A DNA stretch of 6,521 nucleotides. Origin: a virus (Duplodnaviria > Heunggongvirae > Uroviricota > Caudoviricetes). Position 1 is the first letter of the stretch; the number at the start of each line of letters is the position of its first letter. Positions 50 to 6,521 of the stretch are shown in pieces. A model generated the notes under the pieces. The model worked only from the letters and a program-made list of their open reading frames with translations, searched no databases and had not been told where the DNA came from. The position numbers were made by a program, and so were the translations under genes. The stretch lies in IMG/VR virus record IMGVR_UViG_2534681674_000007, one strand, 5' to 3'.

Positions 50-232
50 TCACCTTGTTTTCCTCGCACGATGTCTTAGCCACCGGATATCCCACAGATG
101 AGCCGTGTAGTTGAAGGTTTTTACGTCAGATTCTTTTGGGATTGGCTTGCGTTTATTTCTGGAGCGTTTCGTTGGAAGGTATTTGCAGTTTTCGCAGATG
201 ATGTCGGTGATACTTCTTCGCTGTCGCCTCAT
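50..232 (-). CDS. ninE: NinE-like protein (60 aa)
   Basis: Translation from internal Met ([23 protein letters not shown]...[16 protein letters not shown]) matches my recollection of lambda NinE. ATG at 232..230 overlaps the upstream methyltransferase stop (229..231) in an ATGA coupling motif. The ORF-track start at 322 would overlap the upstream gene by 90 nt and is not preferred. Confidence 0.7.
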
Positions 233-756
233 GCCGCCCTTCTGACGCCCTGCCCGATCGCCATCAATGCCGCTTTGGATACGGTAGTAAACATCCGTCG
301 AGGACTGATGAACGGTCGCCAAATCAGCAGCATGGAGCCTTTGCTGTTTCCCTTCTTCTCCAGCCCCGTCGATGGTTCGATAAAATTAATCCGTCCATCA
401 GTGATAATGCGAACTTCGTCGACACTCTCCAGAGCCTTGCTGAACCATCCGACTGACATATCCTCTGGCACAAGCATCACTACCGTCTGTCGCTGTTGTA
501 TGCACTGCTCAGCGGCTTTTTCCACCCACGGCCTGATATTGCTGTACGGTGGGTTATTCCAGATTGCCCCGTGGCTTATCCACTCAGAATTTAGCGCGTC
601 GTCGGCCTCAGTTAGCCAGTGAGCACACAGAGCATTTTTGTCGCTCGCTGCCGAATCCAGCCAGAATCCAAACTCAATATCCAGTGCATCAAAAAGCCAA
701 AGCGGCGTTTGCCAGCAGTCCTTGTCGTGTGCTGGCGTATTTGATTTGATAGTCAT
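229..756 (-). CDS. phage DNA N6-adenine methyltransferase (Dam-like, orphan MTase)
   Basis: Translation [26 protein letters not shown]...WNNPPYS... carries the NPPY catalytic motif and the DxxCWQTP N-terminal motif of phage Dam-family MTases. ATG at 756..754 overlaps the NinB stop (ATGA). Position between ninB and ninE is typical of lambdoid/Stx-type phages. Confidence 0.85.
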
Positions 757-1196
757 GCTGCCCGATCTCCCCATCGCGCTTTCCATTCGAGAGCCAGTCG
801 AGCTTCGTCTGACCACTTAACGCCACGCTCTGTACCGAATGCCTGTATAAGCTCTAATAGCTCCGCAAATTCGCTTACACGCATCCTGCTGGTTGACTGG
901 CCTATTACCACAAAGCCATTCCCGGCAAGGTTAGGAACAACGTCCTGCTGCTTTAATGCTGCGGTAAACACACACTTCCAGCTTTCTGCATCCAGCCAGC
1001 GACCATGCCATTCAACCTGACGAGAGACGTCACCTAAGCAGGCCCATAGCTTCCTGTTTTGGTCTAAGCTGCGGTTGCGTTCCTGAATGGTTACTACGAT
1101 TGGTTTGGTTGGGTCTGGAAGAATTTGCTGGATAGCTTGAATGGCGTTCTGCTGATGGATGGGGCTTCTTAGTTCAAACGTTAGTTTCCTCACCAT
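753..1196 (-). CDS. ninB: NinB (Orf-family recombination mediator)
   Basis: 147-aa translation (MVRKLTFELRSPIHQQNAIQAIQQILPDPTKPIVVTIQERNRSLDQNRKLWACLGDVSRQVEWHGRW...) is near-identical to lambda NinB as I recall it. Strong SD (AGGAG, 5-nt spacer) upstream of ATG 1196. Confidence 0.9.
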   Translation of the reverse strand: MVRKLTFELRSPIHQQNAIQAIQQILPDPTKPIVVTIQERNRSLDQNRKLWACLGDVSRQVEWHGRWLDAESWKCVFTAALKQQDVVPNLAGNGFVVIGQSTSRMRVSEFAELLELIQAFGTERGVKWSDEARLALEWKARWGDRAA

Positions 1197-1900: not shown

Positions 1901-3277
1901 TCATACGTCAGCCCCTTGTGCATATCGTCTGCCACGTGCAGCGGGTGCATTTGATGTTGTGCAAATCTGTCTGGCTTCATCCTGGTCACACGCAACAAAG
2001 TGTCCGTTGCAGAACCGCTGGTAAACCGTACCAAGCGAGCCAAAACGGTTTTTCGTCACGATGATTTCAGCAAATGGCGCGGCGCTACTGTTCTCGTCAT
2101 ATACCGCTTCCCGATAGAGCATGATGATTGAGTCTGCGTCCTGCTCAATGCTTCCTGAATCACGCAAATCTGCGTTTGTCGGGCGTTTATTTGGTCGCTT
2201 CTCAACATCGCGCGAAAGCTGACTCAGGGAGATAACAGGCGTTTTCAGGTCTTTCGCCATCGCCTTCAGGCTTCCGGAGATGTGAGCAATTGCAAGGTCG
2301 TTGCGGTCTGCTTTCGGCTTCTCAATCAGGCCAAGATAATCCGCCATGATGAGTGACAGGTTTGGATTTTCCTGTTTGTGCCGTTCTGCGATTGAGCGTA
2401 TTTCTTCGACCGATAACCGCGATGCATCGACTACCCATACATCCAAATCTGCAAGCTGACTCATGCCGTTAGCAACACGCGCCCAGCCTTCGTCATCCAT
2501 CGATGCAGGATTTCGCAGCACGCTAACCGACATCCTCCCGGCGTTGGCAATGCTCCGCTCTGCAATCTGCAATGCGCTCATTTCCATTGAGAAAATCAAT
2601 ACTCCGCGCCGGACGTCAGAACCAGGAATAACGCGGCTTGCAACACCTTCGGCAATCTTCAGCGCCAGTTCGGTTTTCCCCATACCAGGACGAGCGGCGA
2701 TAATCACCAGGTCTTCCGCGTTCATCCCTCCGGTGATAGCGTCAAGTTCTTCGATTCCGGTCTTCAGGGTATCGGACTCTTCTCCGTTCCTCAGACGCCT
2801 GTCAAGCGTGTCAGTGTAGTCAGTAATGATTTCCCCTAACCGTACAGGTTTAACCTCGTCACTGGGCTTTCTGATGGCTGAAAGACGCTTTACAAGCTCA
2901 TCCATCGCCTGACTCGATGCGTCGATGGTTCCGCTCTGAATTGGTTCACGCATTTCATCCATGATTTCCAGCACCAGACGGCGGTGATAGTTATCCGCGA
3001 CCATTCCGGCATATCCCTTCAGGTTTGCGGCGCTCGGGCAGTTTTTGCTGGTCATCAGGATTGACGTGAAATGCTCCTCTCCGCACGCCTCGGCAACCAT
3101 CAGCGCGTCGATTATGTTTCTGTTTCGCGCCTGCTTGCGGATAACCTCGAAGGCTTTCCGGTAGAGCGGAATTGAAAACGCTTCCGGCTCCAGCGTTGCA
3201 AGAACGTCACTGGCGGTTGGAGTTAATCCACCAATCAGCAGGCCACCGATAACGCTCGCTTCGATATCCTGTCTCAT
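1901..3277 (-). CDS. replicative DNA helicase, DnaB family (phage P22 gene 12-like)
   Basis: 458-aa translation has DnaB hallmarks: N-terminal [13 protein letters not shown], Walker [26 protein letters not shown], and C-terminal [36 protein letters not shown] at 3277..3275 overlaps the upstream gene stop (ATGA); SD GGGGGA upstream. Confidence 0.92.
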
Positions 3278-3846
3278 GCAATCCCCCTGTCTGCAAACTT
3301 CCCTTCCCGTACTCCCGTTAACGAATCTTCCCTCAGCAGGTAATCAAAATCTGCCGTCCAGCCAGTGTCGTTGTCTCCGAAGTAAAACGGCTTGGCCTGA
3401 TGCACAAACGCCCTGACATACGCTCTGAAACCGTCCACGTTTGGCGTTTTCAGTTGTGGGATGATTTTCTTCAGGCGGCGTTTGCGTTTCTCGTTGACCG
3501 CAACAGCGTGTGGCAGTCTGTCACCGACTTCGGTGTTGTAGGCGTTCAGGAAGGATTCGTAGTCGATTCGTTCTGCCTTGCGACGTTCAGGTTTAACCTG
3601 CCCATCGCCTCCCCCATTGGGGGGTAGGGGGGTATTATTTATATTCTTGTTAATACCTTCTTGTTCATGATGTGCGGTTGTTTGTGCGGCTTCATGTGCG
3701 CTTTCATGTGCGGCATGTGCGCTGAAAGCCGCGCCATTACTGTCTTCGTCATGTGCGGCATCATGTGCGGTTGTTTGTGCGGCTTCATGTGCGGGTAAAT
3801 TGTCCATTTTTTGAGCATATTCATGGTAATTTGTGATGGTTATCAC
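3274..3846 (-). CDS. replication initiation protein, lambda O / P22 gp18-like, N-terminally truncated at the IS junction (linker plus C-terminal domain only)
   Basis: ORF opens with GTG at 3846..3844 immediately adjacent to the IS end; the in-frame stop upstream lies inside the IS terminus. The 5' third encodes AH[E/D]AA-type repeats, then an Asn/Gly/Pro-rich linker, then a C-terminal domain (..[25 protein letters not shown]..) resembling phage replication initiator C-termini. Sits immediately upstream of and translationally coupled to the helicase. The N-terminal iteron-binding domain is absent. Confidence 0.6.
3666..3795. repeat. iteron-like tandem array: about 9 copies of (C)ATGTGCG(G) at roughly 12-bp phasing, including an exact 31-bp direct repeat (3670..3700 and 3763..3793)
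   Basis: ATGTGCG at 3670, 3694, 3706, 3715, 3751, 3763, 3787 and TTGTGCG at 3683, 3776. ATGTGCGGTTGTTTGTGCGGCTTCATGTGCG is repeated exactly 93 bp apart. Lies inside the O-like gene and is followed (in the direction of O transcription) by an AT-rich tract at 3633..3655. Confidence 0.6.
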
Positions 3847-3888
3847 TGAACCGCCCCGGGTTTCCTGGAGAGTATTTTATCTGTGAAC

Positions 3889-4776
3889 TCAGGCTGCCAG
3901 ATCATTATTTCCGATGGAAGCATAATAAGCTTTTTCTGCTTCTGCCGGAGGAATATGGCCCAGCCTTTCCAGCAATCGTCGATTGTTATACCAGTCCACC
4001 CACGTTAGTGTGGCCAGTTCCACTTCTGTCCGGTTTTTCCAGCTATTACGGTGTATTACCTCCGCTTTGTAAAGACCATTGATGCTCTCAGCCATCGCGT
4101 TGTCATACGAGTCGCCAGTACTCCCTGTTGATGCCAGTAATCCGGCTTCCTTAAGCCGCTGCGTGTAGGCCAGCGATACATACTGAGAACCTTTATCACT
4201 GTGATGGATTGTGCCGGACGGCCGACGGGCCCACAACGCCTGCTCCAGTGCATCCAGCACGAATGTCGTTTCCATAGACGATGAGACTCGCCACCCCACG
4301 ATACATCCGGCAAACACATCAATGATGAACGCCACATAGACGAAGCCCTGCCATGTGCTGACGTAAGTAAAATCAGCCACCCACAGCTGGTCAGGACGTT
4401 CTGCCACGAACTGACGGTTTACGCGGTCGCCTGCGGAAACGGCTTTCCGGCTGACGGTAGTACGGACCTTTTTACCCCGGAGAACACCGGCAAGTCCCAT
4501 AACCGCCATGAGGCGCGCCACTGTACATCTGGCCACCCTGATACCTTCGCGTAACAACTGGCGCCAGACTTTACGCACACCGTACACCTGATGATTTTCA
4601 TCGTATACGCGCTGTATCTCTCTCTTCAGCCAGTCATCGTGCTGCGCACGGGCACTGCGTTTATCCGGATGATGTCGCTGTTGCTGACAATGGTAATACG
4701 TTGACGGGGCAATATGCAGTTCGCTGCATACCGGTCCGACCCCGTACTGCTCACGCAGCTTATCCAGCAGCGGCAT
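3889..4776 (-). CDS. IS629-like transposase OrfB (DDE catalytic domain, 295 aa)
   Basis: Contains the DDE triad context (..LWVADFTYV.., ..HHSDKGSQYVS.., ..DNAMAESINGLYKAE..) typical of IS3-family integrase-fold transposases. In -1 frame relative to orfA, with overlap at 4776. Confidence 0.9.
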   Translation of the reverse strand: MPLLDKLREQYGVGPVCSELHIAPSTYYHCQQQRHHPDKRSARAQHDDWLKREIQRVYDENHQVYGVRKVWRQLLREGIRVARCTVARLMAVMGLAGVLRGKKVRTTVSRKAVSAGDRVNRQFVAERPDQLWVADFTYVSTWQGFVYVAFIIDVFAGCIVGWRVSSSMETTFVLDALEQALWARRPSGTIHHSDKGSQYVSLAYTQRLKEAGLLASTGSTGDSYDNAMAESINGLYKAEVIHRNSWKNRTEVELATLTWVDWYNNRRLLERLGHIPPAEAEKAYYASIGNNDLAA

Positions 4777-5102
4777 TATTTTTTCCAGAGGCGGTCGAAC
4801 TCCGCCTTCGCAAAATAAGCGGAAGCCTGGCGAAGGATATCGTTACTGCGGCGCAGTTCACGATTTTCACGTTCCAGCTCTTTCAGACGCTGACGTTCAG
4901 CGGTGGTGAGTCCACCATCACCACTCCCGGTATCCCGCTCACGCTGACGAACCCACACACGCAGAGTCTCTGGTGTACAGCCAATCTTTGGGGCAATGGA
5001 ACAAATTGCCGCCCATTGTGAGTCATATTCGCCCTGACTTTCCAGAACCATACGAATCGCCCGCTGACGGACTTCGGGGGAAAAACGAGTATTTTTAGTC
5101 AT
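4776..5102 (-). CDS. IS629-like transposase OrfA (HTH DNA-binding subunit, 108 aa)
   Basis: [51 protein letters not shown]... with a leucine-zipper-like C-terminus ([30 protein letters not shown]), typical of IS3-family OrfA. Ends in AAA AAA TAA overlapping the orfB ATG. Confidence 0.9.
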
Positions 5103-5293
5103 CCTGTTTACCTCTTTCTCAGGGAGTTTAGTCTCCAGGATTTCCGGGGCGGTTCATTACCGATATCGATACATCAGGAATATTTGATTCAGATGATATG
5201 ACTATCAAAGCCGCCTGAGCGCGGCTTTACCGCATACCAATAATGCTTCACGAGAGGCATTTTCGTTATGCAATCAAATATAAGGAGTTACCC

Positions 5294-5428
5294 ATGATGC
5301 ACTTTCAGCTCGCGGGTAGCGGCGTCATGTCCGCTTTCTACCCGCACGAATCTGAATTATCACGCCGAGTTAAACAATTAATCAGAGCAGCAAAGAAACA
5401 ACTGGAGGCGTTATGCGCAATGAAATAG
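5294..5428 (+). CDS. small hypothetical protein (44 aa)
   Basis: ATG 5294 is preceded by TAAGGAG with a 7-nt spacer; translates MMHFQLAGSGVMSAFYPHESELSRRVKQLIRAAKKQLEALCAMK. The ORF-track upstream start at 5243 has no SD. Confidence 0.4.
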   Translation: MMHFQLAGSGVMSAFYPHESELSRRVKQLIRAAKKQLEALCAMK

Positions 5429-5565
5429 CCATTAATCACCAGATGCTTCGTGCTGCACAGAACAAAGCAGTAATAGCCCGATTTATTGGTGATTCAAAAA
5501 TGTGGCTTGAAGCAAATAAAGCGATGAAATCAGCTATCAACCTTCCGTGGTATCGCAGGAAATGA
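5413..5565 (+). CDS. small hypothetical protein (50 aa)
   Basis: Not in ORF track (<60 aa). ATG 5413 is preceded by GGAGG (4-nt spacer); translates MRNEIAINHQMLRAAQNKAVIARFIGDSKMWLEANKAMKSAINLPWYRRK; stop TGA 5563..5565. Confidence 0.4.
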   Translation: MRNEIAINHQMLRAAQNKAVIARFIGDSKMWLEANKAMKSAINLPWYRRK

Positions 5566-5720
5566 GTTTTACAGATAACTGGTCAGACGAAGAATTCATT
5601 CGTCAGATGAAAGATTTAATCGGTAACGAAGGAGATATTCATGTCACTTGCAACCACAGTGAAGGAGAGCAAGTTACAGAGACGCATGTACACGCAGAAA
5701 GCTCTCTGGTATCGCCATAA
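5562..5720 (+). CDS. small hypothetical protein (52 aa), alternative to or overlapping 5641..5811
   Basis: ATG 5562 overlaps the preceding stop (ATGA); weak SD. Translates MSFTDNWSDEEFIRQMKDLIGNEGDIHVTCNHSEGEQVTETHVHAESSLVSP. Overlaps the next candidate in a different frame, so at most one model may be fully correct. Confidence 0.3.
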   Translation: MSFTDNWSDEEFIRQMKDLIGNEGDIHVTCNHSEGEQVTETHVHAESSLVSP

Positions 5721-5811
5721 TGGCGACCGCGAAGGAATGCGGGTATGCCTTAATTTGTCCCGAGTCGAAGTATTAAATCAGCGTTATTTTCTTGGGCCAT
5801 GTCCATTCTGA
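5641..5811 (+). CDS. small hypothetical protein (56 aa), alternative to or overlapping 5562..5720
   Basis: ATG 5641 is preceded by a near-ideal SD (AAGGAG, 6-nt spacer). Translates MSLATTVKESKLQRRMYTQKALWYRHNGDREGMRVCLNLSRVEVLNQRYFLGPCPF; stop TGA 5809..5811, 8 nt before the downstream gene. Confidence 0.35.
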   Translation: MSLATTVKESKLQRRMYTQKALWYRHNGDREGMRVCLNLSRVEVLNQRYFLGPCPF

Positions 5812-5819
5812 GGTGAATT

Positions 5820-6521
5820 ATGGATTTGAACAAATTCGATGAGCCATTCAGCCCTGAAGATATCGAATGGCGAATACAGCAAAGCGGTAAAACACGCGAT
5901 GGAAAGGTGTGGGCTATGGTGCTGGCTTATGTCACGAACAGGGCAATCATGAAACGCCTGGATGATGTTTGCGGCAAAGCAGGATGGCGCAATGAATACC
6001 GCGATATTCCCAACAACGGCGGCGTTGAATGCGGCATATCAATAAAGATTGATTCCGAATGGGTAACCAAATGGGATGCTGCTGAAAACACGCAGGTAGA
6101 AGCCGTCAAAGGTGGTCGTTCCGGTGCAATGAAGCGCGCTGCCGTTCAGTGGGGAATCGGTCGGTATCTGTATAACCTTGAGGAAGGTTTCGCACAAACA
6201 TCTCTCGATAAAAAGCAGGGGTGGCACAGGGCAAAACTGAAGGATGGAACAGGATTTTACTGGCTCCCTCCATCGCTTCCGGGATGGGCAATCCCAGCAT
6301 CAGATAACAAACCATCACCAGAAAATACCAACCAGAAATCTCCATCGGTTGACTGCGAACAAATCCTGAAAGACTTCAGCGATTATGCGTCAACAGAAAC
6401 TGACAAGAAAAAACTCATCGAGCGTTATCAGCGTGACTGGCAATTAATGGCTGGCAACGAGGAAGCGCAGGCTAAATGCGTTCAGGTAATGAACATCAGA
6501 GTTAACGAACTAAAACCGTAA
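5820..6521 (+). CDS. Rad52-like single-strand annealing protein (phage Sak/Rad52 family recombinase)
   Basis: 233-aa ORF with SD AGGTGA upstream of ATG 5820. N-terminal region (..VLAYVTNRAIMKRLDDVCGKAGWRNEY.. and ..VKGGRSGAMKRAAVQWGIGRYLYNL..) follows the conserved Rad52 N-terminal-domain pattern (RLD..G..GW and a K(R)A...G(I)GRYLY-like motif). Assignment from motif recollection, not a search. Confidence 0.65.
   Translation: MDLNKFDEPFSPEDIEWRIQQSGKTRDGKVWAMVLAYVTNRAIMKRLDDVCGKAGWRNEYRDIPNNGGVECGISIKIDSEWVTKWDAAENTQVEAVKGGRSGAMKRAAVQWGIGRYLYNLEEGFAQTSLDKKQGWHRAKLKDGTGFYWLPPSLPGWAIPASDNKPSPENTNQKSPSVDCEQILKDFSDYASTETDKKKLIERYQRDWQLMAGNEEAQAKCVQVMNIRVNELKP

Follow-up and report, generated by a model that had tools for sequence, protein, structure and literature searches.

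A candidate iteron-type replication origin within the truncated O-like initiator gene of a lambdoid prophage

Genes of the window and truncation of the initiator gene

The DNA analysed here is a single stretch of 6,521 bp (the window), the minus strand of which carries the early-right genes (replication and nin) of a lambdoid prophage. Its features are listed below.

229-816, minus strand: phage Dam methylase gene
753-1196, minus strand: NinB gene
1901-3277, minus strand: intact DnaB-like replicative helicase gene of the P22 gene 12 type (Pfam DnaB_C, E = 9.6e-78; DnaB N-terminal domain, E = 8e-13)
3274-3846, minus strand: 3' remnant of the gene for an O-like initiator (295 aa), covering codons 106-295
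3611-3632, minus strand: C6-TA-C6-AAT-G5 tract (coding strand), encoding PLPPNGG
3633-3655, minus strand: AT-rich tract TATTATTTATATTCTTGTTAATA, a predicted DNA-unwinding element on the basis of duplex stability, and also a mosaic breakpoint
3656-3672, minus strand: nearly invariant junction CATCATGAACAAGAAGG, leading from the last repeat unit to the AT-rich tract
3670-3713, minus strand: putative iteron block 2, four 12-bp units, linked to block 1 by a 31-bp repeat
3715-3721, minus strand: off-phase ninth core copy, 9 bp from the next unit
3727-3741, minus strand: spacer motif AGTAATGGCGCGGCT (coding strand) between the blocks, found in nearly all homologous arrays
3751-3794, minus strand: putative iteron block 1, four 12-bp head-to-tail units, invariant in viable relatives
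3847-5156, minus strand: IS3-family element, IS629-like, 1310 bp, with Pfam matches to orfA and orfB and inverted ends, truncating the initiator gene
5243-6521, plus strand: early-left genes beyond the IS, small ORFs matching the kil/DUF2528 region of relatives
Within 5243-6521, plus strand: Rad52/22-family recombinase gene, continuing past the end of the window

The helicase gene overlaps the stop codon of the initiator gene by 4 bp. From gene order and domain swapping, we infer that the DnaB-like helicase is the partner of the initiator's C-terminal domain. No tRNAs were found, and no promoter-like sites were present within 3200-4000. An alternative-frame ORF of 61 aa (MNMLKKW..., 3639-3824, minus strand) is a by-product of the repeats and is unlikely to be a gene.

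The initiator remnant was 100% identical to WP_023568659 of E. coli 2013C-4974, with the identity ending exactly at 3846, and shared 97.9% identity with the phage CUS-3 gene O across the same stretch. Val106 of the initiator is natively encoded by the GTG at 3846, which is no true start. A Pfam search with the 190-aa remnant returned no domain. The intact initiator has an N-terminal Phage_rep_O domain (PF04492, E = 3e-15, above the curated cut-off), which spans residues 20-132 in intact homologues (CUS-3 numbering) and is followed by the array and then by the C-domain. The window retains only the array and the C-domain and therefore lacks a functional Phage_rep_O initiator. The preliminary description of this DNA had proposed that the N-terminal iteron-binding domain was deleted, and this was borne out: residues 1-105 are replaced by the IS, and the gene is cut at 3846/3847.

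The element was named IS629-like because of its 1310-bp length and its ends. IS629 is 1310 bp long, and adjacent deletions by IS629 are known in EHEC (PMC3064760). An ALIL pseudoknot, the programmed-frameshift signal of IS3-family transposases, was detected at 4705-4821 on the minus strand (Rfam, 120 bits) and was the only Rfam match in the window. The element is not flanked by a target-site duplication (CAC versus TTA), and the sequences on its two sides are separated by 5.9 kb in E. coli 2013C-4974, the intact relative; the deletion therefore covers kil, N, cI, cro, cII and initiator codons 1-105. Thus, the IS629-like element and an adjacent deletion of ~5.9 kb took the DNA-binding domain of the initiator, the pR promoter and the immunity region. 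The exact IS junction of the window was found in no complete E. coli genome of the collection. The transposase genes read towards the candidate origin described below, so some transcription across it may be possible. The prophage of E. coli 2013C-4974 (locus L002) carries the closest intact copy of the initiator (3686-4573 of that locus), and its helicase gene is split by another IS3-family element (5475-6688), the reciprocal of the defect in the window.

Layout and length of the repeat array

Seven copies of the heptamer ATGTGCG were found in the window, where ~1.5 would be expected; all of them lie within 3670-3793, and none of 200 shuffles reached this number. Two extra copies read TTGTGCG (3682-3688 and 3775-3781), giving nine copies of TGTGCG (CGCACA on the coding strand) within 124 bp. 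The cores start at 3670, 3682, 3694, 3706, 3715, 3751, 3763, 3775 and 3787, in steps of 12, 12, 12, 9, 36, 12, 12 and 12, and Tandem Repeats Finder reported two arrays of period 12. The array thus has the minimum of four repeated sites above chance expected of a lambdoid origin, and there is no second array of cores elsewhere in the window. Its units are 12 bp long and arranged head to tail, and the 7-bp core of each (coding strand CGCACAT) is asymmetric. In block 1 the coding-strand cores are CGCACAT, CGCACAA, CGCACAT and CGCACAT (plus-strand positions 3787-3793, 3775-3781, 3763-3769 and 3751-3757); those of block 2 lie at 3706-3712, 3694-3700, 3682-3688 and 3670-3676. Two details reported earlier were confirmed: a 31-bp direct repeat is exact between 3670-3700 and 3763-3793, and the repeats encode a low-complexity peptide, a 10-residue repeat that is present twice.

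The preliminary description had counted about nine copies of ATGTGCG(G) at roughly 12-bp phasing. Seven copies are exact and two are near matches, but the copy at 3715 is off phase and the conserved set is 4+4. At the position of this ninth copy, CUS-3, JEP4, the Stx2a phage and Kapi1 read CGTACA, CGAACA or AGTACA. Since the copy at 3715 is both off phase and unconserved in close relatives, the real set consists of two blocks of four, and the ninth copy (3715-3721) probably does not function as a unit.

In nearly every homologous array the DNA sequence of the spacer motif is conserved. Its counterpart in phage L is AGTAATGACGCGGCT, even though the phage L protein is only 23% identical. The motif AGTAATGGCGCGGCT did not match DnaA, IHF or the other sites checked, and the candidate origin as a whole contains no DnaA box, IHF consensus or GATC cluster. 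At the junction CATCATGAACAAGAAGG, each column was at least 90% conserved across 23 loci with 68-88% N-domain identity.

The AT-rich tract adjoins the repeats, as had been described, and the segment 3632-3656 is the least stable duplex in the 6,521-bp window, both as a 25-mer and as a 40-mer (nearest-neighbour energy). The energy of the tract is -23.2 kcal/mol compared to a window mean of -34.2 (sd 2.7). An easily melted tract therefore comes right after the repeats, as expected for a lambdoid origin. On the coding strand, 26 of the 37 nt of the AT-rich tract and junction (3633-3669) are purines. The adjoining homopolymer runs were also as first reported, and on the plus strand comprise C5 (3611-3615), G6 (3619-3624) and G6 (3627-3632). 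This C6/C6/G5 tract is kept in P22, the HK97 type, S.Inf 5-2, ENT1, L051 and L055, across different C-terminal domains, but the Klebsiella 2b and phage L types lack it. A hairpin between the C6 and G5 runs was no better than those of shuffled sequences (z = -0.33), and because of this we claim no structural role for the tract. It may form a GC boundary to unwinding.

Comparison of copy number among relatives, proposed in the preliminary description, showed the 4+4 set in close relatives. Across near-identical initiators (P0001, P0003, P0039, P0050, P0051 and L138), the array varies in steps of 31 codons (93 bp), and 93 bp is the distance between the two 31-bp repeats. The proteins are 264 aa (3 cores), 295 aa (8-9 cores), or 326 and 357 aa (three and four blocks) long. 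A first scan of IMG/VR, which covered near-identical N-domains only (at least 98% identical) and was used for copy number and not for covariation, showed the two-block length in 77 of 78 contigs, with seven cores in 13 contigs, eight in 49 and nine in 15. Near-identical proteins with just 3-5 cores also exist (P0050, P0051, P0044 and L138); therefore, eight units may be dispensable, or those prophages may be defective. The initiator homologue of Xenorhabdus ehlersii diverges past block 1 and stops at 156 aa, a decayed gene with half of the array left.

Modular exchange, DNA-level constraint and covariation of the array

The array in the window is colinear with its counterparts in Stx2a phages and in the viable phages CUS-3, Kapi1, JEP4 and HF4s, and is 98% identical to them. 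By translated search and genome scanning we identified Klebsiella, Yersinia, Salmonella and Enterobacter phages and about 47 Enterobacterales prophages with the same layout, in the common order of N-domain, three or four 12-bp units, spacer with AGTAATGGCGCGGCT, three or four units, CATCATGAACAAGAAGG and AT-rich tract. Relatives with 68-88% N-domain identity have CGCACAT or CGCGCAT cores, and those with 47-52% have CCGATRA (S.Inf 5-2) or GTCGAA (ENT1), with the two-block layout kept. With phage L included, the alignment became too divergent to be used in a locus search.

HK97, Nil2, the Stx2 phage 1717 and many E. coli prophages share the C-terminal half of the gene at 96% identity, from ~3650 downward, and have a Phage_rep_O N-domain different from that of the window's relatives. 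At the position of the array, the HK97/Nil2-type alleles carry four ~18-bp dyad iterons with 20-24-bp spacing, followed by the AT-rich tract and CCCCCTTACCCCC. P22 gene 18 follows the same plan, with four repeats of its own and an AT/C5 segment that is 96.7% identical. Backhaus and Petri (1984) reportedly located the P22 origin in gene 18. Gene O of lambda contains four ~20-bp iterons to which the O protein binds, and P22 gene 18 holds four different ~20-bp repeats (PMC8022706). The comparison with origins of the P22/lambda family that had been called for thus places four iterons in the P22 and HK97/Nil2 alleles exactly where the array lies. Given these allelic iterons at the same site, the repeats of the window stand where a modular origin has its iterons.

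Homology to alleles with other N-domains begins at the AT-rich tract, which is thus a mosaic breakpoint. The N-domain, array and AT-rich tract are joined to at least five unrelated C-terminal domains (L005, L006, L008, L010, L051, L055, P0079 and P0085), and the joint always lies just past the AT-rich tract. Downstream of these fusions are genes for DnaB-like helicases, or smaller genes annotated as "DNA replication protein" or "replication protein P".

To examine constraint on the DNA itself, codon usage was compared between the repeats and a control drawn from the same genes. Among 210 Ala-His units from 46 loci, alanine was encoded by GCA (118) or GCG (92) and never by GCC or GCT, which account for 59% of Ala codons in the control. 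Histidine was encoded by CAT in 208 units and by CAC in 2, compared to 106 and 96 in the control. The codon preceding Ala-His encodes Pro, Ala, Thr, Ser or Gly, yet its third base was C in 209 of the 210 units (control 28%). In 23 colinear loci, identity of the 7-nt core was 95% among units within a locus and 88.5% between loci; the 5 nt between cores were ~50% identical in both comparisons. Third-codon positions compared between loci were 94% identical inside the cores versus 52% in the N-domain. Synonymous sites in the cores are thus not free, as they would be in a plain coding microsatellite or low-complexity linker. The repeats of phage L have an 11-bp period and hence run through three reading frames; they therefore encode three different peptides, and the constraint there is on DNA. 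Judged from these sequence comparisons, selection on the cores is acting on the DNA and not on the peptide alone. A purely coding segment with no repeat conservation at the DNA level had been named as the finding that would speak against an origin, and intact homologues show the opposite, with cores conserved at synonymous sites.

All units of one locus carry A, or all carry G, at base 4 of the core, a synonymous difference. In 44 loci this base tracks residue 80 of the initiator perfectly, Asp80 occurring with A (CGCAC) and His80 with G (CGCGC). Residue 62 is Ala or Pro in one core class and Ser or Thr (with two Leu) in the other, with no overlap between the classes. On an N-domain tree built without columns 62 and 80, the core class switches at least three times independently; L042 and L021, for instance, are 87% identical but belong to the G class (His80) and the A class (Asp80), respectively. 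Three further IMG/VR scans with divergent queries provided 167 further contigs with 81 distinct N-domains, in which 58 of 58 His80 sequences had CGCGC and 23 of 23 Asp80 sequences had CGCAC. The rule thus holds in 125 distinct sequences (44 + 81) with zero exceptions, and the repeats co-vary with the initiator N-domain as expected of a specificity module. Residues 62 and 80 are encoded ~110-230 bp from the array, and this physical linkage therefore adds to the covariation. The concerted switch of every unit calls for a common reader, and the helix-turn-helix of the initiator is the sole co-varying candidate. The pairing of Asp80 or His80 with A or G may represent a recognition code of O-type initiators in which one residue reads one base.

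An AlphaFold model of a 295-aa homologue showed a winged helix-turn-helix, with a helix at 62-68, the recognition helix at 79-91 and the wing at 95-109 (pLDDT about 70-90). This model puts residue 80 second in the predicted recognition helix and residue 62 at the start of helix 2 of the helix-turn-helix. Residues 118-196, which correspond exactly to the repeats, the AT-rich tract and the C/G tract, were predicted to be disordered (pLDDT < 50), and the C-domain was helical. Matches to known structures were weak and of the generic winged-helix kind (best Foldseek E = 0.057; PDB profile E = 0.33); they support the fold class and no specific family.

Interpretation of the locus and comparison with known systems

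We consider it likely that the repeats and AT-rich tract within 3611-3795 represent the iteron array and unwinding element of a lambdoid origin of the CUS-3/Kapi1/Stx2a-phage type. The proposal of a replication origin within the O-like gene is supported by allelic position, synonymous constraint and covariation. This reading also rests on the location of the array between the PF04492 N-domain and the C-domain, upstream of a DnaB-like helicase gene; on the recurrence of the N-domain, array and AT-rich tract as a unit with at least five C-terminal domains; on the two-block layout that distant homologues keep despite different cores; and on the colinearity and 98% identity of the array with those of viable phages.

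In the mechanism we propose, monomers of the winged-helix N-domain would bind the eight CGCACAT cores head to tail with a 12-bp pitch, as the covariation suggests. The resulting nucleoprotein complex would stress and open the AT-rich tract at 3633-3655, a step consistent with its duplex stability and with the analogy to ori-lambda. The C-domain would then recruit the phage's own DnaB-like helicase, encoded immediately downstream, as gene order and domain swapping suggest. The P22 gene 12 protein is a DnaB-type helicase (cited in PMC8022706). The array DNA would double as the code for a disordered linker between the two domains of the initiator.

If the repeats were a mere slippage-prone, low-complexity linker (AH-x-x) with no role of the DNA in cis, and the origin lay elsewhere, one would expect the predicted disorder of this region, the 93-bp steps in copy number that take near-identical proteins from 264 to 357 aa, and a 12-bp period that preserves the reading frame. 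We nevertheless regard this as very unlikely, since synonymous sites of the cores are 94% versus 52% identical with extreme codon choice, the equivalents in phage L have an 11-bp period and encode three different peptides, and the concerted synonymous GCA/GCG switch follows a residue of the recognition helix. Some of the data would fit cores that bind the N-domain for autoregulation (as a transcriptional roadblock), initiator titration or handcuffing while unwinding starts at another site. The covariation supports binding and not firing as such, and lambda iterons alone can mediate inhibition phenomena (PMC3349717). Against this, the array directly adjoins the least stable duplex of the window, it occupies exactly the position that iteron arrays have in P22- and HK97-type alleles, beside the same AT-rich tract, and the window contains no second array of cores. 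We judge such a separate purpose to be unlikely.

The mosaic junction at the AT-rich tract, the at least five C-terminal partners and a spacer motif conserved even in phage L could also be accounted for by module-boundary sequences, kept by lambdoid recombination, with the repeats and flanking motifs hitch-hiking without a function in replication. This explanation appears highly improbable to us. It cannot explain how a 7-bp core is conserved while the intervening 5 bp diverge to 50%, nor how all units switch base 4 together with residue 80.

Under the preferred reading, that of an iteron array with its unwinding element, the origin in the window would be orphaned in cis, as had been anticipated: the array is intact, its own initiator N-domain is deleted, and pR is also gone. 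Because the N-domain is deleted, the origin could fire only with an Asp80-type initiator supplied in trans. There is a slim chance that the orphaned origin, which may be transcribed co-directionally from the IS, is not inert and that an Asp80-initiator phage, co-resident or superinfecting, uses it in trans, leading to titration or to firing in situ. Ectopic copies of ori-lambda interfere with the phage (PMC3349717, PMC4488673), and titration of the initiator would hinder the incoming or resident phage in the same way. Firing in situ would amplify the surrounding chromosomal region of the STEC strain. Such an origin might respond to related phages in poly-lysogenic STEC.

This replication module is found in Stx2a-converting phages and in many P22-like prophages of E. 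coli, Salmonella, Klebsiella, Yersinia and Xenorhabdus. The analysis provides a comparative map of its candidate origin, with two sets of four 12-bp units, the spacer between them and the predicted unwinding tract, and the candidate single residue/base specificity switch is a target for mutagenesis. There is also a lesson for annotation, in that a "replication protein" pseudogene may still hold what looks to be a complete cis-acting origin.

An origin within an O-like gene is the textbook arrangement. In plasmid iteron origins such as those of pSC101, P1 and R6K, directly repeated sites for a winged-helix Rep protein lie beside an AT-rich unwinding element. Plasmid iterons are ~17-22 bp long and lie outside the rep gene, whereas the units of the window are 12 bp long and lie inside the initiator gene. 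No homology to plasmid Rep initiators was detected, and searches of the PDB gave generic winged-helix matches only.

In ori-lambda, which lies inside gene O, four 18-bp iterons precede an AT-rich region of 38 bp (PMC3349717). The window shares with ori-lambda, P22 and HK97 an origin position inside the initiator gene, between the Phage_rep_O N-domain and a C-terminal recruitment domain, with repeats and then an AT-rich tract along the direction of transcription, repeats that encode the linker, and joint inheritance of N-domain and repeats as a single specificity module. Alleles of the P22 and HK97 types have the very same AT-rich and C5/G5 tracts as the window. In contrast, lambda-type origins have four dyad sites of ~18-20 bp, 20-24 bp apart, and the window has 12-bp units with an asymmetric core in two fours around a spacer. 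The suggestion that the arrangement mirrors ori-lambda therefore holds for the location in the initiator gene and for the order of repeats and AT-rich tract, but not for the iterons themselves, since the window lacks the ~18-20-bp dyad iterons that L003 and P22 do have. The helicase partner also differs, being a phage DnaB-like protein in the window's type, as in P22, whereas lambda has a P-type loader.

The closest parallel in repeat size is Salmonella phage L. Gene 18 of phage L/ST64T contains six imprecise 11-bp repeats, TGTCCAACGGA, described as a putative origin (PMC8022706), and in MW013502 this segment is annotated as rep_origin, "putative origin of replication", a sequence-based prediction. 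Phage L gp18 is 23% identical to CUS-3 O over the full length (E = 7e-13), as for a homologous initiator. Phage L and the window share a pair of blocks built from short direct repeats, a common spacer motif (AGTAATGACGCGGCT in phage L), then AACAATAATATAAATAATAT and an AT-rich tract, with a DnaB-like helicase gene downstream; the window thus has the features that define the phage L type, namely two short-repeat blocks, a conserved spacer and an AT-rich tract. They differ in that phage L has 3+3 TGTCCAACGGA units with an 11-bp period and a different core, and the window has 4+4 units of 12 bp. A short-repeat variant of the origin had therefore already been noted in silico for phage L. In the searchable literature there was no description of a repeat or origin for the CUS-3, Kapi1 and Stx2a-phage module, nor of HK620 or Sf6 iterons. 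What appears to be new here is the comparative case for constraint at the DNA level, together with the proposed rule that links Asp80 or His80 of the initiator to A or G in every unit of its array.
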